A stretch of 64,000 bases of DNA from a virus. Its lineage: Duplodnaviria; Caudoviricetes. The translations under genes and the position numbers were made by a program. Below, piece by piece: positions 9,508 through 38,059 of this stretch; position 1 is the stretch's first letter; each line of letters starts with the position of its first letter. The stretch is from IMG/VR virus record IMGVR_UViG_3300032373_000001; one strand, 5' to 3'. A model generated the notes under the pieces. That model was not told the DNA's origin, ran no database searches, and worked only from the letters and a program-made list of their open reading frames with translations.

Positions 9508-12500
9508 AGCTGACTCCAACGGAGGGACAACTCTCGCATTGCCTGAATGCTGGCGAGACGCCCGGCATCTTGAAGGGGGGTATTCGGGGGCAAGTACCCA
9601 GGACTCGAACCGAGCGGGATGTTCTCTGGGGCACCCATGCCCCAGATCTGGACGCTGTTGAAGTCCCAGGAGCCCCGGGGAGCCTCCAACCTCACTTCCT
9701 CACCTACAGGCACGTAGGCGATCGTGACGTGGGGATTCCAGCGGGGGAACGAATCCTTGACCTCGAACCCCGCCTCTTCGAGCCGTGCGCGGAGCCCATC
9801 TCTGGCCCGATTGAGGTCGCGACTGAACCGGACCCTGCTGAAGATGACCTTTTGCTCAGGGCTCAAGAAGCGGTCCAGCCCTCTCAGGGCAGCCCGGACC
9901 GGGCCGCGGACCTCACTGAACGCCTGGGTGCAGACAACCTTGAAATCTTCCTCTCGCCCCTCGGGGACCTGACCCACGTACAGGAGGGTGATGTGGGCCG
10001 GGGATGGGTCCTCACTCTTGGTCGGGTACTGAGCCGCCAACCCCTCCGGGAGGGGAATGAACAGGCCCACAGAAGTGCCCGTGGGAGGGACCACCGCAGC
10101 AGCCTGGGCGGAAGCCGTTCGGCTCTGAGGGGCGGAGGCTCGCCGGGACATAAAAGTGTGACCCCTTTCCCGGCCCGTCTCGACGAACCCGCGACGCTTC
10201 AGCATGCGAATCGCGTGAGGGTTGACTGCATCCAGGCAGAAATCCAAATCCTCGAAGGCTTCAGAGATTGCATCGTACTCGTCGATGGCATAGTCCATGA
10301 GCTTGGCCCCGAGGCCCTGCTTTTGCCTGTCGGGGCGGACTGCGATGTCGAAGGAGTAGCAGTCGTTGCTAACCTCGTCGAACAGTACCGCGACCAGCTC
10401 CCCGCCGACCATGAGCCCTGCCTTGAAGTCCTTGCCGCTGAAGATGTTGATGCCCGCTTGCTTGGCGATCTCCCAAGGGTCCGGGCCATCCCACGGAACC
10501 TCGAAGACCCACTCGACCCGATTGCTGAGCTTCAGGGCCTTTTCCTCGCCGCCTGCTGCCAAGATAAGGACACCGTCCTCTTCTTTGAGCACATCACCCT
10601 CGAACCGGGCTCCCTGAGCCGTGGTCCAAGCGACCTTGGTCTGCTGGGTCCACTTCTCCCCATCGGTATCTCGTCCAGCCTCCAGCGCGCCGAGATAGAA
10701 CCAGTGCTCTTCGATGCTGGCACGATCTGCGCCGCGAGGCAGGGCAGCCGTAGACGCCCCGTAGTCGGGTTCGGTGACCAGCTCCCAGGTGTTGGAGTAG
10801 AGGACCGGGACGCCCGCAGCGTCTTCTTTCGACTGGCCGATCGTCGGGTGGATGCTCGCAGTACGACTCATGCCCGCCCCCTTGGGCTGAGGAGAACCAT
10901 TCGCATACAACCGGGAACCCCGAACATAGCGCACCAGGTCCTGTTCTCCCAGCTGATAGGGGGTGTTGCTCAAGAGACTCATGGCCTGGGCCTTGGTCAT
11001 CAGCTTCGGACCCTTCAGGACGACGTCCTGATTCCAGGTGACCTCTTCCGAATAGGAGGGCTTGGGCATGGTGTCGGTCCGGAACCGGATTGCAACGACC
11101 GGACCCTCATCCTTGTCGATGTGGGTAGTCTGGGTCCCCGGGACGTAGTCTCCCCACACCAACGAGATGGCATACACGGCATAGCCGCCGAACTTCTTGA
11201 TTCCGGGCGGGTCAAGCAAGAGCTTCTTGGAGCGGAGAATAGAGGCAGCACGCTTGGCGGTGGTGAAGTGGACGAACTCATCCGACGCCAAGTTCATCTC
11301 ATAGACGCGGCCTTCCATGAAGGTGGTCTCGCTCGTGGGCGTCGGACCCGCAGAGCCCACCTTAACCTTCATGGTATCTCCAGTCCACTCCCCACCCTTT
11401 TCCTTGTACCACTTGGCAGCCCACCCTTGATGGAATCGGACAGGCATCTTGGGGTGCTTATCTTGGGCCGACCTCAGCGCCTCGGCCCAGAGGGCTGCAT
11501 TCTCGGGCTTGCCGAAGTCCCCCTCAAAGAACTCCCTTGAACCCTTGAACCAAGCCGCCCGAAGCTGGCGAGACGCAGCGCTGGAGAACAGGCCCGCCAC
11601 AGCCTTGTAGGCTTCCCCGATCGCCTTCCTGTACTTGCCCTGAGCAGAGGCTCCGGCCCGCTTCAGGTCATAGAAGAACGCAAGCGGATAGGTCCGGGTG
11701 TCGTGCCGGCGCTGGCCCACCATGATGCGGAAAGCTGCTGCCCGTTCCTCTATCGGGAGGGCTTCCAACCCCTCCCGCATACGCTCAATAGCGTCCGGCA
11801 ACTTGGTGTAGAACTCCCGGTCGTCCAGCGAATGCTGCGATCGGTTTTGGCCCTGCTGGCGGATGTCCGGGGTGCGGATCTTCTTGCCGGGGAGGCCCGC
11901 CTGGATCTTGTCGGAGGCGAATCCCGCCAGAGTGCTCAGGAGGTTCTGGGCATAGTGGCGCATCTCGTGCTGAAGGGCCTGCTGGATCCACTTGGCGTTG
12001 ACCTTCGGGCTAACCTCGACCTCTATGACGGCGGTGCGCGGGTCGAACTCGGCCGAGCGACGACCTCTGGTGTCGCTGAGTATCAGATTCACCCCAGGCT
12101 TCTTGGCACTCCGAAGGATGTCACGCTTCATATTCTCGATGTAGGCGAGCATGTAGTCCGGGATCGGACCTTCCGGGGGCTGGAGCTTCTTCAGGAGGTC
12201 AGCGTTTTCCTTCTCGATCAGCTCCTCAAGGCGGTCCCCGTACTTCCAACCCTTGAGGTCTGCTTCGAACCTCTTCTGAACCGGCCCGCTCAACACCACG
12301 GCTTCTGGGTGGAGCTTGCTGAGCCGTTCCCACTCCTCCCATGCAGAGTTGTCGGAGCCCATGCCTTGGGCCACGCCCTTGTCCATACGGGTTTTAGCCC
12401 AAGAAGCGACGGCCCAGCGATACATCTCGTCCAACATCGCCGGAGGAGCTTCGAGCAGACCTGCCTGCTTCGATGCAACGAAACGGTCAGGGATACCCAC

Positions 12501-22151: not shown

Positions 22152-22490
22152 TCAGCCCTTCCCGTGCTCGTCCGAGGCCCCACGGACCGGCCACCGACCG
22201 CTTGCGCGGGACTCCGTCTCAGCGCTGAGGATCTTGTCCTCATTGATCTCCTCCAGAGCCTCCAGCTCCTCGACGAACCCCTTGATCAGGGACTGAGCTT
22301 CGGGGCTCGCGGGGTCCGTGTGGGGGAAGGCACCTTCGAGGGACTTGGTCACTGCCCGAACGACCCCGCGAGAGTAGAGCGCGACCTTGTCCAAGCTGGT
22401 CAGGATCGCCCTGCGGGTCTCGTCACCCTTCGGGAGAGAGCGAGCCAGCCGCACCAGAGCCTGTCGCTCCTGCTTCGAAATCCTTTTCAT
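22152..22490 (-). CDS. Small hypothetical protein
   Basis: 112 aa, RBS AGGAGG; leader ERQALVRLARSLPKGDETRRAILTSLDKVA. Confidence 0.6.
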   Translation of the reverse strand: MKRISKQERQALVRLARSLPKGDETRRAILTSLDKVALYSRGVVRAVTKSLEGAFPHTDPASPEAQSLIKGFVEELEALEEINEDKILSAETESRASGRWPVRGASDEHGKG

Positions 22491-24327
22491 CGGAGGTCCT
22501 CCTATCCAGAGTTGCCGATAAGGAAAGGATTGCTCTGGCGAGGGCCTCTATCGAGACAGTGTCGCCCGAAGCGGTCTTGAGGCTGGCGAAACGCCCTTGG
22601 CTCTCCTTGGGTTTGGCGTAGGTCAACCCCAAACCCTTCGCGAGCTGGGACACGACGTCGGAGTTCTCGACCAGCTGCCGTCCCGTGTCGCTATAGATGC
22701 CTCGCATCATCTCGTTGTATGTCGGATCGTTGACGGTCAGCCGGTCCCGCTCGACCTTCTCCCGCACAGCCACCGGATCGAGGTTCAGGAGCTCCAGGAT
22801 GGTGTCGATGTCCAGCGAGCCCTTCTGGTACAGGTTGTAGAGCGCGTCGAAGGTGTCCCGGTTGTCCCGCAGGGCAAGGCGGGTGAAGCTCAGGGAGGGG
22901 ACCAAGACAATCTTATCCCCGTCCTCGTCTTCCTCCACAAAGCCCATACGAGCACACATAGGACGCAAGAGGATTTCTTCCACCAGTTTCTGGAGCTGCT
23001 CTCGCAAGAGCATGTAGCGGGTGTTGATGGCCTCCAGGTTCACCCGGTCCCCGGAATAAGAGCCCTCTCCTGTCAGGAGGCTCTCCGTGATGCCCAGGCC
23101 CGCATACAACTGACGGTTGGTCAGCTCATACTCGCCGTCCAGGTTCAAGAGGCGCTGGTCTGCCCCCATTTCTTCCCAGCGGACCTCGAAGTTGGAGACG
23201 ATGGAATAATCCGGGTCCATCAGGGCCATATCGACCTGCTCCCGGAGGTCCTCCACGTCACCCAGGCTAAGATCTTCCCCGTACACAATGCGGATAGGGG
23301 TCATGTGCCGCGAGGCGATGGAGGTCTGAGCCTGACGGAGCTTGTCCCGATAGACCAGGGCTCGCATGCAGCACTGGAGGATCGAAGTCCCACGGGCCTC
23401 GTAGTCCGACTTCTTGTTGTAGAGGCAGTACACGAAGCTGCCAGCATACGGGTCCGTACCCAAGACCACGTTCCCACCCTTCCGGACCGCGTCGATCAGG
23501 TGGGGAGGCATGTCATCCACGACCTCCTTTGCCACCGGGTCTCCCGCTGCCGCCTGCTCGATGACCTTCTTGGTCTCGGAGTCCGGGAGCATCTCCACGA
23601 TCTTCTTGTCGGTGAAGTTAAACGTGCGGACCCTAATGTTCTCGGGGGGGAGGCAGACCAACTTGGTCCAGCCCTTGTAGTTCTTCTTCAGCCACTTGGC
23701 AGCGCGCTTGTCGGCGTCCTCGTACTTGATCCTCTTCTCTACAGCCTCACCATCTTCCGTCAAAACCCGCTGCGTGTAGTGAGTGATATCTTCCGGCATC
23801 TCCGGGTTCTTGTCCTCGCACCAGAGATACACCTCGCCGATGAGGTTGCGCTCACGGGTGATCGCCAAGAGCCGGTCCGTCAGGTCGATGCGCCGGACCC
23901 ATTTCTCACAGAAGCGCATCGCCGCCTCCGCCATCTTCCGATTCTTGGCGCGAGGGATTGCCAACCGTACCTTGCTGATCGGCAGGATGGAATGTAGGGA
24001 AATCGCCTGGCTGACGTAGGGTTCGTTCTTATCGAAGAAGCGGTAGTAGGCCCACTGCTCATGGAGGCTCTGGGGCAGCTCCAAGAAGTCCGTGGAGAGC
24101 TCCGGGGAGTAGAAGTTGCCTCCGGCTCCCATCACCGACCCGCCGTTGCCGAAGCCGCCTCCACCGTAGGATGCGGTCCGAGACTTCATCTGGCTGGAAA
24201 CCACCCGCCGAGGCGGGCCAGCCTTGGCCTTCTTCTTGCCGTCTCCGTTGGAGACCTTGTTGACCACCTGAGCATCATCTTCTTGCTGCTTGCCCAGCCG
24301 CTGGCCGAACCCCTTACGACGACCCAT
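22423..24327 (-). CDS. Portal protein
   Basis: YRFFDKNEPYVSQAISLH..., RERNLIGEVYLW, RGTSILQCCMRALVYRDKLRQAQ...IASRHMTPIRIV; near terminase; ATG 24327 with GAGGAG RBS. Confidence 0.8.
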   Translation of the reverse strand: MGRRKGFGQRLGKQQEDDAQVVNKVSNGDGKKKAKAGPPRRVVSSQMKSRTASYGGGGFGNGGSVMGAGGNFYSPELSTDFLELPQSLHEQWAYYRFFDKNEPYVSQAISLHSILPISKVRLAIPRAKNRKMAEAAMRFCEKWVRRIDLTDRLLAITRERNLIGEVYLWCEDKNPEMPEDITHYTQRVLTEDGEAVEKRIKYEDADKRAAKWLKKNYKGWTKLVCLPPENIRVRTFNFTDKKIVEMLPDSETKKVIEQAAAGDPVAKEVVDDMPPHLIDAVRKGGNVVLGTDPYAGSFVYCLYNKKSDYEARGTSILQCCMRALVYRDKLRQAQTSIASRHMTPIRIVYGEDLSLGDVEDLREQVDMALMDPDYSIVSNFEVRWEEMGADQRLLNLDGEYELTNRQLYAGLGITESLLTGEGSYSGDRVNLEAINTRYMLLREQLQKLVEEILLRPMCARMGFVEEDEDGDKIVLVPSLSFTRLALRDNRDTFDALYNLYQKGSLDIDTILELLNLDPVAVREKVERDRLTVNDPTYNEMMRGIYSDTGRQLVENSDVVSQLAKGLGLTYAKPKESQGRFASLKTASGDTVSIEALARAILSLSATLDRRTSDEKDFEAGATGSGAAGSLSPEG

Positions 24328-24667
24328 CTGCAATCTCCTCCGCCGCCTGCTGCTCAGCCGCCCTCAAGAGGGCTTCTTCTCGCTCCTGTCGGACCCGTTC
24401 TCGGAGCTGTTGCGCCAGCTCATCCTCGGTCATCTCGTCGGTTTCTCGAGGGCCATTGCTGTAGGGGCTCACCATGCTGGGAACGTCCTGGATCATCTCC
24501 AGGAGCCCCCGGAGGTGCCGCAGGGTCCTTCGCTTCCGCTGAGGAGGTACGCCTACGGCTTCTGAGGCAGAGCGGAGTGCAGCACGGACCTCGGACTCCG
24601 CTCGACGAAGGCGGATCAGGACCTCACGGTCTTCCGCGCTACTCTGGCGGATCCGGAAACGAGTCAT
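24314..24667 (-). CDS. Hypothetical protein
   Basis: 117 aa helical ORF, translationally coupled between terminase and portal. Confidence 0.55.
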   Translation of the reverse strand: MTRFRIRQSSAEDREVLIRLRRAESEVRAALRSASEAVGVPPQRKRRTLRHLRGLLEMIQDVPSMVSPYSNGPRETDEMTEDELAQQLRERVRQEREEALLRAAEQQAAEEIADGSS

Positions 24668-26580
24668 CGACGGCGGCCTCGGGGAATGGTGCGACTACTG
24701 TGGGACCCTACCCCAGTGCGGCGCGCGGACCTTCGGGAATTCCCGAAGGGGGTCTTGCCTGCTGAAGGCAGGCCCCGGCGACCGGACGCCCCCAGCGTTG
24801 CATGCTGGTAGGTCTTGTTCTGGGTAGCGCAGAACACCATGCGAACCAAAGCGTCACTGTAGTCGTCGTGTTTCCCTTCCATCTGGGGGGCCTCGACGTT
24901 GACGATGTACTTGGACTTGTACTCCGCCTGAAGCTCCAACAGCTCTTGGATGTAGTCACACCACTCCTCGTCGTCCGCCAACGGCCAGTTGTAGAGCCGC
25001 ATCTTATGGTCCATCATGAGGTGCATGAAATTGGTGTAGACCTGGGAGTTGAAGCTGGGGTTGAACAGCTTCGACTTGATGTTCTTCAGGCCACGGCGGT
25101 TCAGCGCCTGCTCGAAAGGGATGCCAGCCCACTGGTCGAACATCCCCTCCACGATGTAGAAGCGCTTGCTCAGGTCGTAGACCCAGTCCGCGACGTGATC
25201 GAACTCCAACCGCTCGTAGTCTGCGTAGTCGCCCTCGCCAGCGCGGATGCGCTCGATGTAGTCCAAGACTACGTTGCCATCCGGGTCGTTGTGGCCAACG
25301 GCGACTGCAGAATAGTCGCCGACGAGGGCGATGTCGACGCCCATGAAGTGGGGGGCGCGAGGCTGTGCCCGGAGCTTGGGGCGCATGTCGGGGACCACGC
25401 AATCGTGCAGGTCCTTGGGGGTCTGGATCCAGCCACGAGTCTGATCGCTGAAGATCGCACCGAACTCAGTGTCGAAGACGTTGGGGTCCTTTAGGTAAGA
25501 ACCGACGAACGTCTCAGCAGGAACTGTGGGGTTGACCTCCCACGTAGGGGCCTGGATGCAGAGGAGGTTGTCTGCGGCTGCGTTGTCGCCAAAACCCAAC
25601 CGGAACTGCTTATAGAAAAGGCCCTGCTTGCCCAGCGGCGAGGAGATCATGATGATCCGACCCTCGTTCTCTCCGACAGGCTTGGTCTTGTCGTTGGGGT
25701 CCTTCTTGCTGAAGGTACGGGTAGAAGGCTCGACCGCCTGATAGACCTCGTCGGCCGACGCCTGCCCCTTGTCTCCGAAGTGAGCGACCTCATCCAGGGC
25801 AACCAGCAGGTTGGCTCCACCACGAAGGCCCTTAGCCACACAAGACCGGAAGGTCACGTTGATGCTGAACCGGGCCTTGGGGTTGTCCGCGTAGGACCCG
25901 TACTGCTCGATGTCATAGGGGGTCTGGAAGGTGGCATAGCTCTGCGTGGCGTTCGCAGCATAGGGTCGGAAGAAGTCACACTTGGTGAAGTGCCCCGAGG
26001 CCTCCCTGTAGAGCAAGGACGCCTGGTCCTTGTCGGTAGCGACCGAGATCAGCTGGATGACGTTCGATTGAGAAGAGCCGTAGTATGCCTGGGGGTTGCC
26101 CTTCAGGAGGAGCTTGTACGCCTCATAGGCGACGATGCAAGACGTGATCAGCGTCTTCCCAGAACGGCGACCAACACTGAGTACCATCTCGCGGCGCTGC
26201 CTGCCAGGGACGACCGCATCGATGTTGCAGCGGCCCTCACTGTGGAGGTACTTGATGTAGCTGGCCTCGGTGTGGTACTGAGGGTTCTGCCGCCGGAAGT
26301 CTGTGATGACCACCCGATAGACGTAGAAACCATCCGTGTCAACGAGGTCTTCGTCGTAGGCTGGGTGGTTAGTCGGGATCGGCACATCCAGCGGGAACCC
26401 GAGGGGGTTGTCGTCCAGCCCCATACCATAGTGGGCCTTGAGGATGATACGCTGAACCGGGAACAGCTTGAGGCCCAGCCCCCACTCACTCTCCACGAAC
26501 GTAATGATGTCAACCGCCGCATCGTCCGTAGAGTTAGACGAGCGGCGACCGACGCCAGCTACCAGGTTCCCCAGGCTCAT
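24664..26580 (-). CDS. terL: Terminase large subunit
   Basis: Walker A SVGRRSGKT, Walker B VALDEVAHF, coupling motif MISSP, nuclease MGVDIAL and HDDYSDA. Confidence 0.92.
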   Translation of the reverse strand: MSLGNLVAGVGRRSSNSTDDAAVDIITFVESEWGLGLKLFPVQRIILKAHYGMGLDDNPLGFPLDVPIPTNHPAYDEDLVDTDGFYVYRVVITDFRRQNPQYHTEASYIKYLHSEGRCNIDAVVPGRQRREMVLSVGRRSGKTLITSCIVAYEAYKLLLKGNPQAYYGSSQSNVIQLISVATDKDQASLLYREASGHFTKCDFFRPYAANATQSYATFQTPYDIEQYGSYADNPKARFSINVTFRSCVAKGLRGGANLLVALDEVAHFGDKGQASADEVYQAVEPSTRTFSKKDPNDKTKPVGENEGRIIMISSPLGKQGLFYKQFRLGFGDNAAADNLLCIQAPTWEVNPTVPAETFVGSYLKDPNVFDTEFGAIFSDQTRGWIQTPKDLHDCVVPDMRPKLRAQPRAPHFMGVDIALVGDYSAVAVGHNDPDGNVVLDYIERIRAGEGDYADYERLEFDHVADWVYDLSKRFYIVEGMFDQWAGIPFEQALNRRGLKNIKSKLFNPSFNSQVYTNFMHLMMDHKMRLYNWPLADDEEWCDYIQELLELQAEYKSKYIVNVEAPQMEGKHDDYSDALVRMVFCATQNKTYQHATLGASGRRGLPSAGKTPFGNSRRSARRTGVGSHSSRTIPRGRRR

Positions 26581-28243: not shown

Positions 28244-29236
28244 TCAGGAGCTGGCGTATCCGTAGAAGAGCCAGCCGCCCGGCACAGGAACCGCGAAAGC
28301 GGGTCCCCACTTGTCGTTATTGTCCCCATCCTCGTACGCGAAATTCCGAGCTTCCCTCAGCGTTCGCGGCTTCCGGTCCCGGACCTTGAATCCGTGCTTC
28401 TCTGCGATAGTCCCAGAGTAGCCCTCATAATCTTCCCCTTCCTCTTCGGCCTCGAACCGCGCTTCGCTCTCTGCCGAAGCGCGAAGGTCCTCGAAGACCT
28501 TCTTGGGGTCTGACCCCCGGCCCCAGACAGAGAAGAAGTCTGCGCCAGCAGACTTCCCCCGTGCGGCCATGTACCGGGACAGGACGCGGAGCGGGTCGAG
28601 GGAAGCAGGTCTGCCTGCACTGAGGTTTTCCCGCCTCAGACGGTCCATCGTAGGCGGCCGGCATCCAGCCATGACTTGTCTCCCTTCGGGAGTGATCTCT
28701 CTCTCGATCGCGCAGGCAACCCTGCGTACCAGATAAGAGGGCCATTTCTCCGACCACTTGCTGTAGAAGAAGTCCTCGCCGCACACGCGGACGAGCTTCT
28801 CGGGGTTGGGCATGTTGGAGTCTGCTACCCAAACACACCTGCCCGTCAGGTCCCCGTAGCCTGCACAGTAGGGGGGCAATCCCCCTTCCGGCAACCCGTC
28901 GGTCACATCGAAGACCACCGAAGCGTGGGACCAGTCTCGACCTTCGGGATTCCAGGAGATCATGACAGGGGCACCTTTGTCGGTCCACTCCCGGAGTTGG
29001 GTGACTGTGGAAGGCGTCGTCAGGGTAGCCCGACAGCCGTAGTGCTGAGCTGTGGCCAGCGCCTGCTCCCACGCAGCCCCCCGCGTCGGGGTAGCCCCCA
29101 TGACCTGATTGACCTCATCCTCATCGCACTGATGCCCCAGAGCCTGGAGCGCCATACACATCGAGGTGGCCATACAGCTAAACTGAGTTCGCTGCCGGAC
29201 AGGTTTGATCATCGCCTTTGCGAAGAAATTCCTCAC
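28244..29236 (-). CDS. C39-like cysteine peptidase fused to a small unknown C-terminal domain
   Basis: GTG start 29236 (GTGA overlap, AGGAGG RBS); QRTQFSC (Q,C), WSHASVV (H), VADS (D). Confidence 0.7.
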   Translation of the reverse strand: MRNFFAKAMIKPVRQRTQFSCMATSMCMALQALGHQCDEDEVNQVMGATPTRGAAWEQALATAQHYGCRATLTTPSTVTQLREWTDKGAPVMISWNPEGRDWSHASVVFDVTDGLPEGGLPPYCAGYGDLTGRCVWVADSNMPNPEKLVRVCGEDFFYSKWSEKWPSYLVRRVACAIEREITPEGRQVMAGCRPPTMDRLRRENLSAGRPASLDPLRVLSRYMAARGKSAGADFFSVWGRGSDPKKVFEDLRASAESEARFEAEEEGEDYEGYSGTIAEKHGFKVRDRKPRTLREARNFAYEDGDNNDKWGPAFAVPVPGGWLFYGYASS

Positions 29237-31221
29237 GACTCCTCCTGTACGGGTGCCGCTGGCAAGCGGACCCAAAAAGTGCAACCCCGGCCGTGGCCAT
29301 CGCTTTCGACCCCCGCAGCACCCCCATGACGCTCGGCGATGCTTCTACAGAGCGCCAAGCCCACCCCCGTACCTTCAGACAGGTCAGGTCGGATGCGGGC
29401 ATAGAGACCCCAGATCTTGCCCTGCTCGGAGGGAGACAGACCCACCCCGTTGTCTTTCAGATACACAGTCAAAAACCCAGCGTCGATCTCTGACCAGACC
29501 GCCAAAGTCGGTTGCGGAGAAGTGTTGTACTTCGAGGCATTGCGGACGATGTTGTAGAACATTTCCCGGATCAGCCTGGAAGACCCCAAGACAGTGCAGT
29601 CCGGTGACGGTGCCATAGTGACACCCAAACCAGCCCGGCCTGCTTCTCGGACCAAAGACTCGAACAGAAAGTGCAAAGATACCGGCTCCAGCTCGTCAGG
29701 ATCCAGGTGGCGTGCCTCACTAAACCGATAGAGGCCACCGACCAAGTCCACGATCTTGCGGCCCTCCTCCGCAATCATGAGGAGCATTTCCCGGTGCTCC
29801 TCTGGGAGCTCGGGGGACTCCCAGAGGATCTCCTCGGCCAACCCCACGATACTACGCGGACCGCTCTTGAGCTGGTGTACGCTGGCAGAAGCAACGCGCT
29901 CCAAGTCCGCGTTGCTTCTGCGAAGAACTGCCAGGGCTTGGTGGGTGTCGTGAACGTCGGACCCCACAAAATAAATCTTGCCGGGGTCCGCCGAGACGGC
30001 GGACCAAGACACCCAGCGATACTCGCCGGTCTTGTGCCGCCACCGATTGCGGTACGAGGAAGAGGCACACCCGCTCAAGAGCTGGCCTTGAGCCTCGCGG
30101 GTCGTCGCCAAGTCTTCGGGGTGGATGAAGGACTCTACACCCTTAGCACAGAGCTCCCCCTCCGAAGAGGAGCCTGACCAACTCAGCAGAGCCTTGTTTG
30201 CCCAGAGGACCTTCTTGCCCTCTTGAATCCGAATAAAAGACAAAGACAGGTCGATCAACTCCTTGGCCTCTTCGCGCTCCTTGATGCGGGCGATCTCCCC
30301 CGTAACGTCTCGCCCGACCCCGTACATGTACTCCCCGATCAGGGACCCTCGCCACTCGATCGTGCGGTAAGGCCCCTTCTGGGCAGCGAGGGAGCCGGGC
30401 TTCGTCCGGTATCGGTTCCTGTATCCTTGAAGAGGAACCCCGGACTCTGACTCTTCTTTGACATGATCAGTGCCGGGGAGGTCCTCTGGGTGCATCAAGT
30501 CTTGGAAGCGGGTGGACTCGATCTCTTCGGGGGTCCACCCGAGAACGTCAGTCCAAGCCTTGTTCACACTGGTGTAGTAGTCCGAACCAGCCTTCATCAG
30601 GCCATACATCTCTGCGGCCTCGTCATAGATCGCCGAGGACAGAAACAGCCTCCGCTCGAACTCGACTTCTTGAGTGACATCGCGGGCCACCGCATAGATG
30701 TTCTTGCCGTCTAAGACAGCCCCACACCACTGAAGCCAGCGATATTCGCCCTTCTCCGCTGCGGGCGTCCCGGGCTTCGTCCGGTATCGGTTCTTGAACC
30801 GATACACGCGGGACCCGCCCTCAACATCACCCTTCTCTTCTACGGTTCGGAGGACGTCTTCGGGATGTACGAGCTCCTCCAAGAAGTTCATCGACTCAAC
30901 CTCTTCTGGAGTCCAACCCAAAACCGTTTCCCAGGCATCGTTTGGGTTCTTGAAAGAAGTGCCGCCCACCGGCATCAGGGCGTAAAGCTCATTTCCTCCC
31001 TCCAAGAGGCGTTGCATTAACAGGAGGCGCCGACCCCGCTTCTCCCCAGACTTAAACAGCTGACGCAGGACTACCAGAGAGACCAGCAGCAAGAGGGAAA
31101 CCCACCCCTGGTACACCCAAGAAGGGAAGTCCAAGAAGGGCTGCGAGATGGCCGAAAACCCCAAGACGCACACCAGCAGGTAGACCCAACCCTTGACGTT
31201 CGCGCGCAGCTCACTAATCAT
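29233..31221 (-). CDS. Membrane-anchored multi-PAS sensor histidine kinase
   Basis: Two N-terminal TM segments; three PAS-like repeats (HPEDV/HPEDL/HPEDL...NR[YW]R...YR); H-box SNADLERVASASVHQLK; N-box NIVRNASKY; G1 KDNGVG; G2 GTGVGLALC. Confidence 0.9.
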   Translation of the reverse strand: MISELRANVKGWVYLLVCVLGFSAISQPFLDFPSWVYQGWVSLLLLVSLVVLRQLFKSGEKRGRRLLLMQRLLEGGNELYALMPVGGTSFKNPNDAWETVLGWTPEEVESMNFLEELVHPEDVLRTVEEKGDVEGGSRVYRFKNRYRTKPGTPAAEKGEYRWLQWCGAVLDGKNIYAVARDVTQEVEFERRLFLSSAIYDEAAEMYGLMKAGSDYYTSVNKAWTDVLGWTPEEIESTRFQDLMHPEDLPGTDHVKEESESGVPLQGYRNRYRTKPGSLAAQKGPYRTIEWRGSLIGEYMYGVGRDVTGEIARIKEREEAKELIDLSLSFIRIQEGKKVLWANKALLSWSGSSSEGELCAKGVESFIHPEDLATTREAQGQLLSGCASSSYRNRWRHKTGEYRWVSWSAVSADPGKIYFVGSDVHDTHQALAVLRRSNADLERVASASVHQLKSGPRSIVGLAEEILWESPELPEEHREMLLMIAEEGRKIVDLVGGLYRFSEARHLDPDELEPVSLHFLFESLVREAGRAGLGVTMAPSPDCTVLGSSRLIREMFYNIVRNASKYNTSPQPTLAVWSEIDAGFLTVYLKDNGVGLSPSEQGKIWGLYARIRPDLSEGTGVGLALCRSIAERHGGAAGVESDGHGRGCTFWVRLPAAPVQEES

Positions 31222-31640
31222 CGAAATTCCGGGAGCTCCGCAAGGTCCAGCCAGAAGTCCGATACTACCTGCACCAAGCTGTCCAAGTCTTGGCGGCCGA
31301 CCGGCTTCTTGAGGTAGCTGTTGGCACCTTGCTCGTACGCACGGACGATGTCCGACGGGGAGGGGGATGTCGTCAGGACCAAGACTGGGATCTTCCTCAA
31401 CAACGCATCCGTCTTTCGGAAGGCCAAGAACTCATGCCCATCCATGACAGGCATGATCAGGTCCAGCAAGATCAGCTGGGGGCGGAGACCCAGCTCAACC
31501 ATAGAGATCGCGTCTCGCCCGTGCACCGCCACCTTGACTTCCACATTCTTGGGGCCATGGCGCTCCAAAGCCTTCCGCATGAGAAAAGCGTCTGCGGGTC
31601 GATCGTCCACGACCAGCAGGACTGGGATTTGGCGAGGCAT
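31218..31640 (-). CDS. Single-domain response regulator (Rcp1/CheY-like receiver)
   Basis: VDD, LILLDLIMPVMDG (phospho-Asp), VLTTS (Thr), YLKKP (Lys) all intact; probable ATG 31640. Confidence 0.92.
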   Translation of the reverse strand: MPRQIPVLLVVDDRPADAFLMRKALERHGPKNVEVKVAVHGRDAISMVELGLRPQLILLDLIMPVMDGHEFLAFRKTDALLRKIPVLVLTTSPSPSDIVRAYEQGANSYLKKPVGRQDLDSLVQVVSDFWLDLAELPEFR

Positions 31641-31641
31641 C

Positions 31642-32202
31642 TCAGCCCCCCGCCATCTGCAAGAAGCCATAGGCTGCTGCGCCACCTACGCCGACCAACC
31701 CCGCCGCCCAGAGGAGGTACTTCCCGAAGCCTTCCCACAGCACGGAAGCTGCCTCGCGGAGTTGCCTGTTCGCCTCATCTTCCCTTCGCCGGGCTGCCTC
31801 CACTTCTCGGTCAGAGAGCTGATGCGCCCGTTCGGCGGAACGCTCCTCCCGGTCCCCAGAGTGCTGGAGCACTCTCTCGATCAGGGACTTCTGATCGGCC
31901 ATCTGGTCCTGACGCTCTTTGCGTTCTTGCGCCAAGAGCTCGTCCATCTTGCCCACAAAGCCGCTGATGGTAGAGAGCAAGGTCTCAGTGGTGACGGTCT
32001 GTTGGGTAACCGAGCGGTCCAAGTTGTCCAACTTGGCCGAGAAGTCCCTCCGCAGAGAAGAGACCTCCGAGCTCTGTTGGGTCACCAAGTGCTTCTGGGA
32101 CTCCAAGAGCGCAGTGATCGAATCGGCCAAGTGAGACATAGAGGTGTCCAGCCGCACCAAAATGTCGCGCTCAGTCATCTGCGCTGTGCGATGCTCTTCC
32201 AA
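31642..32202 (-). CDS. Coiled-coil protein with a C-terminal transmembrane helix (holin/XhlA-like candidate)
   Basis: Heptad-rich N-terminal region; hydrophobic YLLWAAGLVGVGGAAAYGFL at the C-terminus. The holin call is inference. Confidence 0.45.
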   Translation of the reverse strand: MEEHRTAQMTERDILVRLDTSMSHLADSITALLESQKHLVTQQSSEVSSLRRDFSAKLDNLDRSVTQQTVTTETLLSTISGFVGKMDELLAQERKERQDQMADQKSLIERVLQHSGDREERSAERAHQLSDREVEAARRREDEANRQLREAASVLWEGFGKYLLWAAGLVGVGGAAAYGFLQMAGG

Positions 32203-32227
32203 GTCGGCCCCCTCAGAGGAGGCCGGC

Positions 32228-32243
32228 GATAGGTCAGCGACCG
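32228..32243 (-). promoter_or_regulatory. Promoter-like motif CGGTCG-N6-TATC
   Basis: 26 nt upstream of start 32202; heads the TM protein-regulator-kinase-peptidase operon. Confidence 0.55.
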
Positions 32244-32806
32244 GCGTAGAGCTCGACCCTCAAGAGGAACTGCTTGAAAGCCTCGTCCGGGACCCACCCA
32301 GCGCCAGCGAACTCTTCCTGGGGCAGGGGGTCCGGGATATTCCCCCAGAGCTCTGGGATCGGCCTGCCTCGGAGGTACTCGCGCTCCGTGCTGAGCAGGA
32401 GGTTGTCCACCCAGATCAAATCCTCGGTCATCCCCGGAGGCAACCCGCGCCACTCCCAGACCAGGTCCTGAACCTTGGCTTCCAGAGTGTAGTAGGCATC
32501 CTTGATGCCCGGGAAGCGCTTCAGCGGTCGGGGGATGTCCACCAAGACATACTCAGACCCATCGTGGAACAGGAACTTGTGCGCCATCTCTTCATCGCCG
32601 TAGCGCTGGAGGATGTAGTCGTGCCCTCGCACGGAGTGTTCCGCGACGGAGTAGAAGCGGTGCAGGTGACCGGCGAAGCGGCACTGGTTGCTCAGCGCGC
32701 GAGCCATGCCGAAGAGGTCCAGCATCTCGATCCTCGGATCGAGAAAGTCGAAGGCAGTTGCATCGATGGTTTCGATGGTGCAGTGACTCGGTTCGATGTA
32801 TGGCAA
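32234..32806 (-). CDS. HD-domain phosphohydrolase (YfbR/YfdR-like nucleotidase)
   Basis: ARALSNQCRFAGH...YSVAEHSV...LFHDGSEY..VDIPRPLK. Confidence 0.85.
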   Translation of the reverse strand: MPYIEPSHCTIETIDATAFDFLDPRIEMLDLFGMARALSNQCRFAGHLHRFYSVAEHSVRGHDYILQRYGDEEMAHKFLFHDGSEYVLVDIPRPLKRFPGIKDAYYTLEAKVQDLVWEWRGLPPGMTEDLIWVDNLLLSTEREYLRGRPIPELWGNIPDPLPQEEFAGAGWVPDEAFKQFLLRVELYAGR

Positions 32807-32808
32807 AG

Positions 32809-32838
32809 GGTCCTCCCAGTCGGCCGACTGGGAGGACC
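32809..32838. repeat. Perfect 30-bp palindrome (terminator-like; contains the HD gene RBS)
   Basis: GGTCCTCCCAGTCGG|CCGACTGGGAGGACC between the sheath stop and the HD gene TTG start. Confidence 0.85.
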
Positions 32839-32869
32839 GTACCCCTTAAACACACATCCAACCAAACAC

Positions 32870-35800
32870 TCAGGTCAGACTGCTCCGCAAAGAGAAGCGG
32901 AGGATGACGTACAGAAGGGGAAGAACCGGCGCATAGGCAGCCTGCGCTTCCACCGCAGTAGGGTCGTCCGGGGAGGGATTCGCCTCGACCCCGGCGTAGC
33001 CCTGAATGATCTGAGCCTTCTGGAGGCTGTCCAGAGTCTTCTGGAGCTGACTGGCGATCTGGGAGGTGATCCCCGCCAGGAACTTGTTGCCGGTGAACCC
33101 ATCCAGGGTCGAACGGCTCTGGCGCTGGACCTCGTCAGCGATAGCGATGACCGTTGGCAGCTTGGTCAGGGGGCCGGACATGTCCGTCGTCAGGCCTTGG
33201 CGGCAGAAGATCCGGTTACGCTCTTGGGTCATGACCGTGACACCGCGAACCGCAACCTGGTTCTGCTGGACCGGGTCCAAGACCCGAGCGATCTCATCGA
33301 ACGCGAAGACCTGGCGGCGCGTCCAGGGAGTTGCGACGTCGATGGAAGGGTTCGCCCTGGCTCCTGCCCAGGCCGCTGCCATGTAGCCGCCATCCACCAG
33401 GTAGGAATCCGAAGTGCCGTCCCCATTGTCCAGGGTGAGCGTGTAGATGTCTGGGTAGAGGAAGCGGAAGCGGGACCGACCGATCGCCTCTGCAGAGTTC
33501 CCGGCCTCTTGGGGTTGGGTTCCAGCGCTGAACCCTGCGAGGGCAGTACGCTCCGCGCGGAAGCGGATCGAGCTCTGGACGTCGCAGTGCAGAGCCATCT
33601 GCTCGTACAGGGCCTGGGAATCCGTCTTGAGCGCCGTGATGTAGTTCAGGAAAGCGCCACCGGGCAGCGGACCCTCAACATCTCCCAGGGCAGTCAGGTA
33701 GGCTGCCGTCGAGGCAGAGTCATTGACGCCATCACCGTCGGTGTCGGTGTCCCGCTGGACCTGACGGAGAGCCAAGATGACCGCCCCATTGTTCAGCGCC
33801 AAGTAGGACGCGAGACTCAGGGGGTTCTGAGTCCCGATCGAACCGTAGGCTGCCACGATCGTTGCTTGGCGGGTGAATAGCTGGGTGGCGTAGACCTGCT
33901 TGGCGTAGTCGTAGGTGGCGTAGTAGAGGTCCCCGATGTCCGGCTCGTTGCCGCCCCGATCGTAGGTCTCCACGATCCCGGTGTCCCCATCAGTCACCCC
34001 CAGCGTGTTGCTGACGATGACCTCAGCACCCGGAACCACACGCGAGGGGAGGTTGGCATCAGCAGTAGCCGCCGCCCGCACGGTGAAGGTGAAGGTTGCC
34101 GCTGCCGGGTAGCTGGTGCCGCCTTCCCGCTCCAGGAGGGTGAAGGTGAGGCCAGTGACCGCATCGCGGTAGGTCTGGCCGACCTGACCATCCTGACCGG
34201 TGCCCGAGTTGAGCACCGAGGTGTTCGCAGTACCGGAGCCAGTCACGATGTCCGAGCTGGTGACGTAGAAGCCTTCGAGGGCATCCTCACCAGTGCCGCC
34301 CTCACCTCCTGTGACTCCCAGGCCCGTTCCCGGAAGGGTGACGGAGGCGGTCGCAGCAACAGCAATCGCGACCGAGGAGGAAGTCCCGGCCCCTGCTGTG
34401 CCCTGACTCTGGATGTAGAGGTACGCAGCGTTGGCCGAATCCCGCACCGTCTTGGCAAGCGCTTCTGCTGCGAAGTAGGTTGCCGTGGGGCTGCCCCAGC
34501 TCAAGAGCGAAGCAGAGAGCGTTGCTCCAGAATGGGCCATCAAGGCCGAGACCAAGACCTCGACGCTCACATCGGTACGCTGGAAGACATCACCGCCAGA
34601 AAGCCCCAGGACGCTGTTGGCCGAGCCCGTGCCGAGCACGATGGTAGCCGACGATGCTGAACTGGCTCCCCGAAGCCGGAAGCCTGCACCCTCTTGGGTC
34701 AGGGTAGCGGTGGAGCTCGCTGCGGTCAGCGCTGCCTGAACCTGGGCGAGGACCGTGTTGGCCACCCCGACAGGACCCAGCGGGACATCAGCAGAGCCCC
34801 CCGAAGCAATGGCGGTGCCCGTAGCATCCGCGAACTCAACGGTGATCGGGGTGCCCTCGATCGTGAGCTGGAGGACGTTGTTCTGGGCGGTGGTTCCGCC
34901 GGCAGCGTAGAAGGTGACCAGCGGCTGACCGTCCCGAGCATCACCGTAGGTAGCAGTCGGGACCTGACCGCCGCTGAGACCGACGAGGCCCCGAACGGTG
35001 GGAGACTTGATAGTGGCCTGGGTTCCGGCCTGACCCAGCTCGTTGGGGGTGAGCCCCGCCTGGGTAGCGCCAGTCCCGCCGAGAACCTCCAGTTGAGTCA
35101 GGTCGAGGATGTCCTGGCCGTCGAGCGAGCCGCCGTTGCCGGGAACCAGCCGGTTCCGCAGGACGAGCCGATCGTTCAAGGTCGGAGTGTCACCCAGCGT
35201 GTAGAGCCGGGCGACGTCGGAGTTGACCAACTTGGCCTGGGCACCCTGGGCCCCGGCCGTCGGGAGACCGGCCAAGACCGCGAAGTCAACCGCAGTGGAA
35301 GCCCCGGCGACGAACTCCAAGAAGCCGCCGCCAGTGTCGGTCGGGTCGACCGTCAGCGCGAAAGTGAGGCGACCAGAGGAATCCGACCCGACCGCCACTG
35401 CGATGTCGATACCAGCCGCAGTGATTGCGGCATCCATCGCAGTTTGAACAGCCGTCGCCAGGGCCGAGACCGAGGCGTAGGTGCCAGCAGCGATGACGTT
35501 GCCGGCCGTCAGGCTGACCGGGGTCGAAGCGACCGTCGTGCCCGTGTAGTTCAGGACCAAAGCATCGTACTCACCCGCCGTGATCGTGACCGGGGCCAGG
35601 AACCGGGTGGAAGACTTGATGACAGGAACAGCGTCGGGGTCGTGGATGTGGTAGGTGTCAGTGACGACAGGAGCACCACTGAAGTTGACTCCGACCGTCG
35701 CCACCTTGGTGGTACCATCGTAGTCGGTGATGGTGCGGACATCACCGTTGGCCAGACCCGCCGTCGGGCGAACGGTCCAACCGATGTAGTAATCATCGAT

Positions 35801-38059
35801 GTCCGAAGCAGTCGCTGCCAGGGTGATGCTTCCGAGGGCACCGCCCTGGGCCGCTGCGAACTCCCCGAGAGATGCCCGGTTGATCGCTCGAACATAGGAG
35901 GCAGCAGTCGCCGTCGCAGAAGAGTCTGCCTTGGCCTGGATCAAGACCCCATCGATCTCCAGGTCGATGTCCCGGTTGGTTGAGTCGATGTCGTAGGTGG
36001 TGCCGCCCGAGTCCGCATCGTAGGAGACCACGTCCCCTACCAACTGACCGCTGAAGCCTGTCCCCGTAGCAGCCGGGTTGCTGAGCTTGACGAAGCCGCC
36101 CGCCAACGCAGAGCCGTCCACCTCGATGTCGAAGTTCTCCGAGGCCCCGGAGACCATGTAGTAAGGTCCGGAGCTGGGAACCGTGTAGGCCCCCAGCGTG
36201 GCACCTTGACTGGCGAAGGTGACGGTGACATCTTCCTCGACACCACCCGTGAACACTGAGGCGCTGAACGGGCTTTCGAAGCGGGCGTCGGGGTCCGACT
36301 CGCTACCGGAGGGGAACTGAAGGGTGATGGTCGCCAGCGCCGCAGACTTGCTGCCGAAGCGAGGGGTGTAGAGGGTGTTGCCATCCTCATCCTGCACCGA
36401 ATAGGTTCCGACGCCGCTGCCACCCGCAGACTCCGACGTGAAGGTGTAGTCCGCGTCCTGGAGGGTGCTGTAGTAGAAGGTGGCGTAGACGCTCGCACCG
36501 ACCGGGACCGGCTCACTCAGGGTGATCTGGTTGGTGGCAGCTTCAACACGGGTGACAGCAACACGACCGCGATTGACCGCATCGCTGAGGCTGTAGCCCC
36601 AGTAGGCGAAGACGAGGTCCGGTCGGTTGGTCGGCAGGTCCACGCGACCGTTGCTGACCTCGCTGAAAGTAGTGGTGTCCAGCGGAGAGTTGCGACCGTT
36701 CCCGGTGGTGGCTGTCAGCGGGAGGGTGAACGTGGTGCGGCTCTCGACCGGAGGCGAGACCGTTTGGTTCACCACTGCCGCGCACTCAGCCAAGTACTGG
36801 CGAGCATCGACCAGCGTCGAGCTGATCTGGTTGGAGCCGAAGGCCGTCCCGCCGACCGTCAGCTCGCCCTGCTCGACCAGCGTTGCCGCACCCCAGAGGA
36901 TGCGGTCCTCCTTGAGGACGTAGTCGGTGCCGTTGATGTAGTCGGTGCGATCTGGAGTCAGACCCACACGGGTGATCTCAGTGACTCCGATGTTCTCCAG
37001 GTAGTCGAAGGTGTCCTGCCAGGAGTTGAAGAAGTACTGGATGGTAACCGTTGCGCCCACTTCCGGAGCGAAGGGGAGAGTGACGGCACGAGTCTGACCA
37101 TCGACCGCAGTCGGGATCACCTGGGTGCCGTTAACCTTCACGGTCACGTCCGCAGTGTCAGTCGTGGTCACACCACCGTTGCTGCCATCGACAATCGGGC
37201 CTTGGAAGGTGTAGAAGACCTTGTTGCGGCTGGTGCCGTTGCCCTGCGTCAGGCCAAGCGTGGTGTTCGCGGTGCCCGCACCCACATCGACGTCGCGGTC
37301 TGCCGTGAGAAGCAGGACCGTTTGGCCGAAGGAGTTCTCCGCCGAGGAAGCAACGAGGCTGGTCCCAGTCGCAGCGGCGTTGATGAACGCCGCCACCTGT
37401 GCAGCAGTCCACCCGCCCGAGGGGCTCTCGGAGATGGCGACCGAGACTGCGTCCGTCGAATCGACAGTGAGCAGGAGGGTGTCGTTGACGTCCGTGGTGA
37501 TGGTGTAGTTCTGACCGACCTCCCCATAGATCGTGGGGGCATCGGGGGCGACCTGATCGCTCACCGTGTCGGTGATCAGGGTGTCGGTGCGGTTGAAGAA
37601 GTAGGTGACCCGGACCTCATCGGTCGCCTCGGGGGTGACGCTGATGCGAAGAACACCGCTGGCACCATCGATGGACAGGACGGCAACAGGCGACCCGTTG
37701 ACGGTGACATTGACACTGCCGGCGGTGGTCGCAGTAACGCCTGCGCCAGTGCCAGTGACGATCGGATAGTTGCGGACCTGGAGGCGGTCCAAGGTCCCAT
37801 CAAAGTTGCCGAGCGTGGCCTGCCCTGCGTTCGAGATGGAGACGACTGCACGTCCGGTCTCGTCTTCCTGCACGACCCGCTGATCGACGTTCGAGGAAGA
37901 GCCCCGAACCAGCTCCAACGCATCCCGCGTGAGGCTCTCGACAGCTTCGCCCATGAACAGAGGAATCCTCAGCGCAGCGGCGATGCCCTGGAGCGGAGAC
38001 TCCTGATTCGTCTCGGTGTAGACGCCTGGAGGGGCGTAAATTTGTCCGGGAAAAGCCAT
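32870..38059 (-). CDS. Contractile tail sheath protein (very large, many inserted domains)
   Basis: N-terminal YAPPGVYTET; C-terminal RQGLTTD...TVIAIADEVQR...AYAPVLPLLYVILRF typical of sheath proteins; 1729 aa. Confidence 0.88.
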   Translation of the reverse strand: MAFPGQIYAPPGVYTETNQESPLQGIAAALRIPLFMGEAVESLTRDALELVRGSSSNVDQRVVQEDETGRAVVSISNAGQATLGNFDGTLDRLQVRNYPIVTGTGAGVTATTAGSVNVTVNGSPVAVLSIDGASGVLRISVTPEATDEVRVTYFFNRTDTLITDTVSDQVAPDAPTIYGEVGQNYTITTDVNDTLLLTVDSTDAVSVAISESPSGGWTAAQVAAFINAAATGTSLVASSAENSFGQTVLLLTADRDVDVGAGTANTTLGLTQGNGTSRNKVFYTFQGPIVDGSNGGVTTTDTADVTVKVNGTQVIPTAVDGQTRAVTLPFAPEVGATVTIQYFFNSWQDTFDYLENIGVTEITRVGLTPDRTDYINGTDYVLKEDRILWGAATLVEQGELTVGGTAFGSNQISSTLVDARQYLAECAAVVNQTVSPPVESRTTFTLPLTATTGNGRNSPLDTTTFSEVSNGRVDLPTNRPDLVFAYWGYSLSDAVNRGRVAVTRVEAATNQITLSEPVPVGASVYATFYYSTLQDADYTFTSESAGGSGVGTYSVQDEDGNTLYTPRFGSKSAALATITLQFPSGSESDPDARFESPFSASVFTGGVEEDVTVTFASQGATLGAYTVPSSGPYYMVSGASENFDIEVDGSALAGGFVKLSNPAATGTGFSGQLVGDVVSYDADSGGTTYDIDSTNRDIDLEIDGVLIQAKADSSATATAASYVRAINRASLGEFAAAQGGALGSITLAATASDIDDYYIGWTVRPTAGLANGDVRTITDYDGTTKVATVGVNFSGAPVVTDTYHIHDPDAVPVIKSSTRFLAPVTITAGEYDALVLNYTGTTVASTPVSLTAGNVIAAGTYASVSALATAVQTAMDAAITAAGIDIAVAVGSDSSGRLTFALTVDPTDTGGGFLEFVAGASTAVDFAVLAGLPTAGAQGAQAKLVNSDVARLYTLGDTPTLNDRLVLRNRLVPGNGGSLDGQDILDLTQLEVLGGTGATQAGLTPNELGQAGTQATIKSPTVRGLVGLSGGQVPTATYGDARDGQPLVTFYAAGGTTAQNNVLQLTIEGTPITVEFADATGTAIASGGSADVPLGPVGVANTVLAQVQAALTAASSTATLTQEGAGFRLRGASSASSATIVLGTGSANSVLGLSGGDVFQRTDVSVEVLVSALMAHSGATLSASLLSWGSPTATYFAAEALAKTVRDSANAAYLYIQSQGTAGAGTSSSVAIAVAATASVTLPGTGLGVTGGEGGTGEDALEGFYVTSSDIVTGSGTANTSVLNSGTGQDGQVGQTYRDAVTGLTFTLLEREGGTSYPAAATFTFTVRAAATADANLPSRVVPGAEVIVSNTLGVTDGDTGIVETYDRGGNEPDIGDLYYATYDYAKQVYATQLFTRQATIVAAYGSIGTQNPLSLASYLALNNGAVILALRQVQRDTDTDGDGVNDSASTAAYLTALGDVEGPLPGGAFLNYITALKTDSQALYEQMALHCDVQSSIRFRAERTALAGFSAGTQPQEAGNSAEAIGRSRFRFLYPDIYTLTLDNGDGTSDSYLVDGGYMAAAWAGARANPSIDVATPWTRRQVFAFDEIARVLDPVQQNQVAVRGVTVMTQERNRIFCRQGLTTDMSGPLTKLPTVIAIADEVQRQSRSTLDGFTGNKFLAGITSQIASQLQKTLDSLQKAQIIQGYAGVEANPSPDDPTAVEAQAAYAPVLPLLYVILRFSLRSSLT

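Follow-up and report, generated by a model that had tools for sequence, protein, structure and literature searches.

A kinase–receiver cassette with a putative membrane-anchored partner in the packaging gene block of an uncultured huge phage

The 64,000-nucleotide stretch of viral DNA IMGVR_UViG_3300032373_000001 (hereafter, the window, taken at its full length) carries a two-component signalling cassette that consists of genes for a sensor kinase, a receiver and a small helical protein with a predicted C-terminal membrane anchor. The observation of this phage kinase/receiver cassette, made earlier from the letters of the DNA alone (the sequence-only reading), was confirmed, and the interpretation offered there was partly supported. 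The reading preferred here, to which we attach about even chances, is that the cassette is owned by the phage, is cargo of a hypervariable slot in the packaging block of genes and is a derived, receiver-less form of a three-part module found repeatedly in this clade of huge phages. A similar three-part module is carried by related huge phages, so it is probable that these viruses monitor the condition of the cell they infect.

Composition and origin of the cassette

Four genes, co-oriented and translationally coupled on the minus strand, were located between a structural gene of 1729 amino acids (aa) and the large terminase gene. They encode the 186-aa helical protein (gene position 31642–32202), a 140-aa receiver of the Rcp1 or bacteriophytochrome response-regulator type (31218–31640), a 662-aa membrane-anchored sensor kinase (29233–31221) and a 330-aa C39-like cysteine peptidase (28244–29236). 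The gene layout and the coupling junctions were re-read and proved to be as first described, namely TGA, 1 nt and ATG between the 186-aa gene and the receiver, an ATGA overlap between the receiver and the kinase, and a GTGA overlap between the kinase and the peptidase with AGGAGG 5 nt ahead of GTG.

The window, which is strand-uniform, belongs to an uncultured huge phage of approximately 411 kb from microbial mats; the record of the kinase protein gives a contig of 410,989 bp. Kinases and receivers are typical cellular genes, and several "phage" database matches for kinases turned out to be contaminated records, which would fit a host kinase and receiver misjoined to phage DNA by an assembly error or bacterial contamination. 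However, the cassette DNA with the same junctions was found at 99.96–100% identity in five independent assemblies from three to four microbial-mat runs, and therefore the cluster is not an assembly artefact. In addition, one 137,957-bp contig from another run covers the whole region. Contamination is thus extremely improbable. Neither a deletion form nor a joint was found in the reads from four runs. Note that a shared contig break at position 29650 is due to low coverage, and that another contig extends across it. The codon usage and the GC content at third codon positions (GC3) of the cassette fall within the range of the phage, and therefore the cassette is not a recent import.

The receiver matched the Pfam family Response_reg (2e-19). 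Its closest solved structures were 6xvu (the regulator of the Deinococcus bacteriophytochrome, 3.5e-24), RcpB, Rcp1 and RcpA, and its metagenomic relatives with 37–47% identity carry the Rcp1 label from their sources. The acidic pair D12/D13, the phospho-Asp D60 and the residues T90 and K112 are kept, all of them in invariant columns of an alignment of 22 sequences. The protein ends with DFWLDLAELPEFR; W130 and P137 are conserved and correspond to the C-terminal aromatic-Trp-Leu...Pro extension of the family. The 140 aa comprise a single receiver domain with no output domain, in agreement with the earlier statement that a DNA-binding domain is absent. The assignment of the kinase and the receiver to the Cph1/Rcp1 (bacteriophytochrome) output type was likewise borne out, as the nearest solved structures and the homologue labels agree. 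In a quick tree, the receiver stands on a long branch in an unresolved fork, and the tree does not place it.

The kinase has the following domain order: a hairpin (aa 12–59), three PAS_3 domains, a dimerisation/His domain with His449 and an ATP-binding domain (aa 548–656). Pfam recognized the PAS_3 domains in three stretches at approximately aa 85–190, 205–310 and 330–420 (1.2e-29), as well as HATPase_c (1.8e-16). The first and second PAS domains are 49% identical, an internal duplication. Hydropathy analysis placed two adjacent membrane helices at residues 12–59 with almost no loop between them, and the kinase is therefore predicted to be without a periplasmic sensor. For the His/ATP-binding module, the nearest matches are the kinase modules of bacteriophytochromes (1.4e-16). 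The search of the phage collection and IMG/VR with the window's own sequence revealed no nucleotide or protein relative of the kinase, and the best protein match anywhere covers 54% of the length at 30% identity.

The alignment showed that the N, G1 and G2 boxes of the kinase are kept (NxxxN..K, DNGVG and GTGVGL). His449, the predicted phospho-acceptor (codon at 29875–29877, minus strand), occupies the position of the H-box His in alignments with 25 cellular and 8 phage kinases. The H-box itself reads SVHQLKSGPRS as against ASHDLQEPLR in the subfamily, i.e., His is kept, the acidic residue is replaced with Gln and Pro is displaced. The residue after the H-box His is Asp or Glu in 168 of the 174 aligned kinases and Gln in 3. 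No Pfam HisKA match was obtained for the kinase at E <= 0.01; nearly all of the listed homologues carry PF00512. Among ten phage kinases compared by motif, only that of the window lacks ASHDL; one locus of the IMG/VR scan described below (L143) also has His-Gln. The claim of intact catalytic residues thus held for the receiver and for the ATP-binding domain of the kinase, but not for the H-box. In HisKA kinases, the acidic residue after His serves as the general base of autophosphorylation, but kinases of the BceS type are active with His-Gln. With its degenerate H-box, the kinase of the window may act mainly as a phosphatase or a weak kinase.

These properties also bear on an explanation by which the phage would interfere with host signalling: the receiver would be a phosphate sink for host kinases of the same family, the kinase a phosphatase acting on host Rcp1-type receivers and thereby switching off a host response, and the anchored protein unrelated cargo. 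It is consistent with the very large cellular family to which the kinase and the receiver belong (37–47% identity for the receiver) and with an H-box lacking the acidic residue used in autophosphorylation. Moreover, single-domain receivers commonly serve as sinks, as in branched pathways with CheY1/CheY2. On the other hand, related phages repeatedly have a membrane-tethered third part, which suggests that the output belongs to the phage itself. We regard interference with the host as rather unlikely.

Recurrence of the module in huge phages

The IMG/VR database was scanned with a profile of Rcp1-like receivers, which gave 24 loci, and with a kinase-core profile built from six sequences, which gave 69 loci. 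The kinase type was found at 64 distinct IMG/VR loci, many of them on contigs of 180–676 kb. At about 35 of the 64 loci, a PAS kinase with the canonical H-box ASHDL(Q/R)EPL lies beside a single-domain Rcp1-like receiver. Among IMG/VR contigs of 100 kb or more, at least 24 have such kinases, approximately 17 of them with an adjoining receiver; the statement of the sequence-only reading that kinase–receiver pairs are unusual is therefore not borne out.

A pair of a PAS kinase and an Rcp1-like receiver was found together with a terminase 46–68% identical to that of the window in at least nine records (G002, G007, G011–G015, G020 and G021). Eight of these nine also encode a receiver joined by a long linker to a membrane anchor at the C-terminus. 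Two of the nine are complete genomes with terminal repeats (402 kb and, for G020, 436 kb). As a separate observation, the terminase match in two of the records (G002:C1:30560–33742 and G015:C1:37025–40237) falls into two pieces approximately 1.3 kb apart within a single frame of 1115–1121 aa, which suggests an intein or another in-frame insertion.

The receiver-linker-anchor protein was found directly beside the kinase at eleven scan loci and at L144 (G021) and L092 (G020). It has 214–315 aa and contains a receiver domain, a linker of 100–150 residues and a strongly hydrophobic C-terminal segment; at nearly all of these loci, an Rcp1-like receiver is adjacent as well. In a separate lineage (L075, L078, L101 and L105), two genes are present there, encoding a 257–275-aa receiver protein and a 130–177-aa tail-anchored protein. 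Profiles of the fused tails found free tail-anchored proteins as their best non-self matches (1.3e-4 and 5e-3; approximately 800 open reading frames). That the parts are fused in one lineage and adjacent in another argues, in the classical way, that the receiver and the membrane rod are functionally linked. The tail-anchored protein of L101 matched DUF7201 (4.6e-4). At L092 (positions 2787–3839), and also at L088, L094 and L107, a conserved gene of approximately 350 aa with a WGR domain (Pfam 3e-6) stands directly before the receiver-linker-anchor gene; its product may be a fourth component of the module.

By architecture, the corresponding protein of the window is the 186-aa protein. By hydropathy, it has one membrane helix at residues 163–181, which ends 5 residues from the C-terminus. 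The AlphaFold2 model contains helices at residues 11–115 and 126–184 (mean predicted local distance difference test score, pLDDT, 73.5), so the protein is modelled as a tail-anchored rod whose soluble helical part spans residues 11–115. No homologue was found among 5.8 billion proteins, and no Pfam or PHROG family was matched, including the holin and XhlA families even at E up to 5. In language-model features, the protein lies near small phage proteins and near the DUF7201 and XhlA clusters (0.87–0.90), neighbours that are leads only. Sites of the head-protease type ([KR]xA[SG]) are absent from both this protein and the receiver, and therefore there is no sign that either is packaged. Prediction of a complex of the receiver with the 186-aa protein gave a score of 0.00, which is no verdict either way. 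The view that the anchored protein belongs with the kinase–receiver pair is supported indirectly, insofar as related phages fuse a receiver to a linker and anchor beside the same kind of kinase and receiver. The holin-like label given to it found no support: no holin family of Pfam or PHROG was matched, the anchor lies 5 residues from the C-terminus and no lysin is adjacent.

A number of results weigh against the preferred reading of the window cassette as a derived variant of this module. The anchored protein of the window has no receiver domain, and no second receiver was found in the window. Its resemblance to the fused tails is confined to a motif of 25–30 residues (SSEVSSLRRDFS versus SQEMSELRRDFS) and is marginal (hhalign P 0.006, probability 6%; pairwise z 3.5; 25 of 2000 decoys scored as high). 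The receiver and the kinase of the window share 39% and 34% (ATP-binding domain) identity, respectively, with those of G021, and the kinase core 24–25%; for neither protein are the counterparts in the related phages closer than metagenomic proteins, which are presumably cellular. The phages also differ in the order of the genes and in their place in the genome. Finally, the altered H-box makes the activity of the window kinase doubtful rather than excluded. Given the marginal likeness of the tails, the distant receiver and kinase and the tree that does not place the receiver, the cassette is called a variant of the module on the grounds of its architecture, common descent not being demonstrated.

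The membrane-tethered output part that the module has in many phages is also compatible with a switch of lysis timing, in which the anchored protein would be a holin, an antiholin or an XhlA-like factor gated by the phosphorylated receiver according to the energy or redox state of the cell. The helical rod and C-terminal anchor of the 186-aa protein would match the architecture of the XhlA proteins of Bacillus prophages, which are associated with lysis. The language-model neighbours named above, XhlA and DUF7201, point the same way as leads. However, the 186-aa protein lacks a holin or XhlA family match, and its 186 aa with nothing beyond the anchor are unlike the known holin classes. No endolysin stands next to the cassette in the window, and no lysin or holin was found beside any module inspected in other phages. 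Such a switch is improbable in our estimation, and a role in lysis timing is speculation.

The variable slot and the neighbouring peptidase

The gap between the 1729-aa gene (32870–38059, minus strand) and the peptidase gene is a hot spot for cargo. In relatives with 65–71% terminase identity, the order of the 1729-aa gene, gap, peptidase, two small genes, terminase and portal is kept, and the gap, or slot, is 0.9–5.9 kb long with unrelated genes in each genome. No kinase, receiver, anchored protein or HD gene was found in the syntenic slot of these relatives. The cargo of the slot (window 29237–32869; L003, L005, L010, L045 and L046) includes zinc-finger proteins, small membrane proteins and AT-rich genes. 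The nearest deposited genome is that of an uncultured 485-kb phage (LR745208; terminase 54% identical). The proteins of the window and the kinase profile revealed no kinase, receiver or anchored protein in it, and its peptidase gene sits elsewhere in the genome.

Below the 1729-aa gene, the minus-strand order in the window is a palindrome, an HD phosphatase gene, a spacer and the 186-aa, receiver, kinase and peptidase genes. The perfect 30-nt palindrome (32809–32838; GGTCCTCCCAGTCGG/CCGACTGGGAGGACC) lies at the upstream border of the slot, immediately behind the 1729-aa gene, and a contig of one assembly begins there. It has no T run after it and is therefore not a typical intrinsic terminator. 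The gene at 32234–32806 (minus strand) encodes a 190-aa HD-domain deoxynucleoside monophosphate (dNMP) phosphatase (PHROG 318, 2.5e-42), which shares the slot and is not evidently part of the cassette. The 31-nt intergenic leader of the cassette (32203–32233, minus strand) contains CCTATC, a small hairpin and a G-rich ribosome-binding stretch, followed by a TTG start. A promoter-like motif had been proposed ahead of the cluster, but the window contains 17 copies of CCTATC where 16.1 would be expected, i.e., it is not enriched, and its status as a promoter is therefore unproven. The promoter scan found no sigma-70-like site before the cluster, and the terminator scan before the cassette was also empty. 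The placement of the genes inside the virion block was confirmed by PHROG profiles, which identified the large terminase (24664–26580), the portal (22423–24333) and the head maturation protease (2593–4047) downstream of the cluster on the same strand.

The contents of such a slot could also be decaying or neutral, i.e., a passenger set brought into a recombination hot spot that has lost signalling. This would agree with slot contents that differ in every relative and with a degenerate H-box unlike those of the other phage kinases compared; no diverged orthologue was found with which selection could be measured. Nevertheless, all four reading frames are intact, the catalytic residues of the receiver and the N, G1 and G2 boxes of the kinase are kept, the start and stop codons are still coupled and the codon usage is ameliorated. 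A His-Gln pair also occurs in the active BceS-type kinases. Decay of the cassette is therefore decidedly unlikely.

The peptidase was attributed to Peptidase_C39_2 (PF13529, papain clan; 9.6e-7, 29.9 bits versus a cut-off of 24). Its papain-like N-domain occupies aa 10–190, with a model pLDDT above 90 over aa 10–185. Foldseek matched it with PeiR (3.3e-7) and the peptidase domains of PCAT1 and ComA (E 3e-7 to 2e-5 over all these matches). The residues Q15, C21, H104 and D139 are invariant in 24 sequences. The N-domain was found in 41 IMG/VR loci at 49–70% identity; owing to the variable C-terminal extension, the complete proteins range from 183 to 1002 aa. The sequence-only reading had counted the peptidase with the signalling system. 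None of the 41 loci, however, carries a kinase or receiver within 10 kb on either side, the gene adjoins the variable cargo slot, and in one relative the cassette lies approximately 90 kb from the peptidase gene. The distribution among these loci indicates that the peptidase is a conserved core gene of the phage clade that stands outside the signalling cassette. The overlap of the kinase stop with the peptidase start arises from insertion into the slot and is not a sign of shared function.

Several further features of the peptidase were noted. The conserved 190-aa domain (window 28244–29236 and L003–L046) starts with M..K.AKA[DN]V.P.RQRTQ[FY]SC, and the hypervariable extension resembles a carrier for swappable modules. 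The C-terminal domain in the window (28244–28660; YSGTIAEKHGF...DKWGPAFAVPV) is homologous to the start of a free-standing slot gene of a relative (L010:7180–7842) with 32% identity (E 7e-8), and therefore this domain moves between the peptidase tail and the slot. At another locus (L007, genes 9262–9984 and 9989–10825), the gene upstream of the peptidase shares its first 14 residues (MKKQSKANLTPKRQ versus MRKQSKANLTPKRQ), which points to a partial duplication or a common N-terminal tag. Two [KR]xA[SG] sites, RPAS and KSAG, lie in the linker between the domain and the extension (window 28550–28612, aa 209–229), a density that is ordinary.

Proposed mechanism and comparison with known systems

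The preferred reading, a phage-owned cassette of variable cargo with the architecture of the huge-phage module, would imply the following mechanism. The kinase would be held at the inner membrane by its two-helix hairpin, with no periplasmic domain, and would read a cytoplasmic cue via its three PAS domains. It would then determine whether the soluble receiver is phosphorylated, perhaps chiefly by removing the phosphate. Because the receiver has no output domain, it would act by protein contact. Its likeliest partner would be the tail-anchored helical protein encoded 1 nt upstream, the anchored part of which is, in the sister phages, fused or adjacent to a second receiver domain. Since the receiver would act on a tail-anchored protein, the controlled event would take place at the cytoplasmic face of the membrane, whether it is lysis timing, the exclusion of other phages or something else.

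A broader proposal, which we put forward as possible but tentative, is that, in this terminase clade, the huge phages have a conserved, branched phosphorelay of their own. It would consist of a cytoplasmic PAS kinase, an Rcp1-type receiver and a membrane-tethered receiver or rod, and would serve as a sensory switch for a late membrane event such as lysis or exclusion. The window would then contain a rewired version, with the kinase at the membrane, a tether without a receiver and a changed H-box.

Classical two-component systems are regarded as a cellular property, and few cases of phages sensing their surroundings are known, among them arbitrium peptides and the quorum-sensing receptors of which phages have copies. 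Judging from the window and its relatives, an entire clade of 200–700-kb phages may carry its own kinase–receiver module with a membrane-tethered output. If active, the module would offer an experimentally tractable example of a virus that reads host physiology through its own sensor, and a new receiver architecture composed of a receiver, a linker and a tail anchor. Two-component systems, Rcp1-type receivers and C39-like peptidases are already known, and the kinase and receiver families of PHROG show that carriage by phages is not new. In the limited library of literature searched, no description of the huge-phage kinase–receiver module or of the receiver-linker-anchor protein was found.

The peptidase shares with the pseudomurein endoisopeptidase PeiR and with the C39 double-glycine peptidase domains of PCAT1 and ComA the papain-like fold and the Gln, Cys, His and Asp residues in place. 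Unlike the bacteriocin-processing C39 peptidases proper, it is a free-standing protein of 330 aa with a variable C-terminal extension and is not fused to an ATP-binding cassette (ABC) transporter. It also differs from PCAT1, ComA and PeiR in its conserved position beside the terminase genes of huge phages. The 186-aa protein resembles XhlA of the Bacillus prophage PBSX (PF10779) and DUF7201, in which a coiled coil likewise precedes a membrane anchor in a small phage protein, but it matches neither in sequence, and neither a holin nor an amidase adjoins it.

The receiver is closest to the regulators of Cph1–Rcp1 of Synechocystis and of the Deinococcus radiodurans bacteriophytochrome (1i3c, 6xvu and 8avv; 3.5e-24 to 5e-19) and shares with Rcp1-type receivers the C-terminal FWL...LP extension and the absence of an output domain. 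In contrast to Cph1 and the bacteriophytochromes, the kinase has no GAF, PHY or bilin-binding part, its input consisting of three PAS_3 domains and a membrane hairpin, and its H-box is SVHQLKSGPRS instead of ASHDLQEPLR. In addition, the receiver gene precedes the kinase gene in the window, and the pair is phage-encoded. The three-part modules of huge phages (L096, L081, L092 and L144) differ from the window cassette in their genome position, in the number of PAS domains of the kinase (one versus three), in the membrane anchoring of the window kinase and in its degenerate H-box. They share with it the same PAS_3 kinase subfamily, an adjoining Rcp1-like receiver, an adjacent C-terminally anchored helical protein, tight co-oriented packing and a location in huge phages with related terminases.

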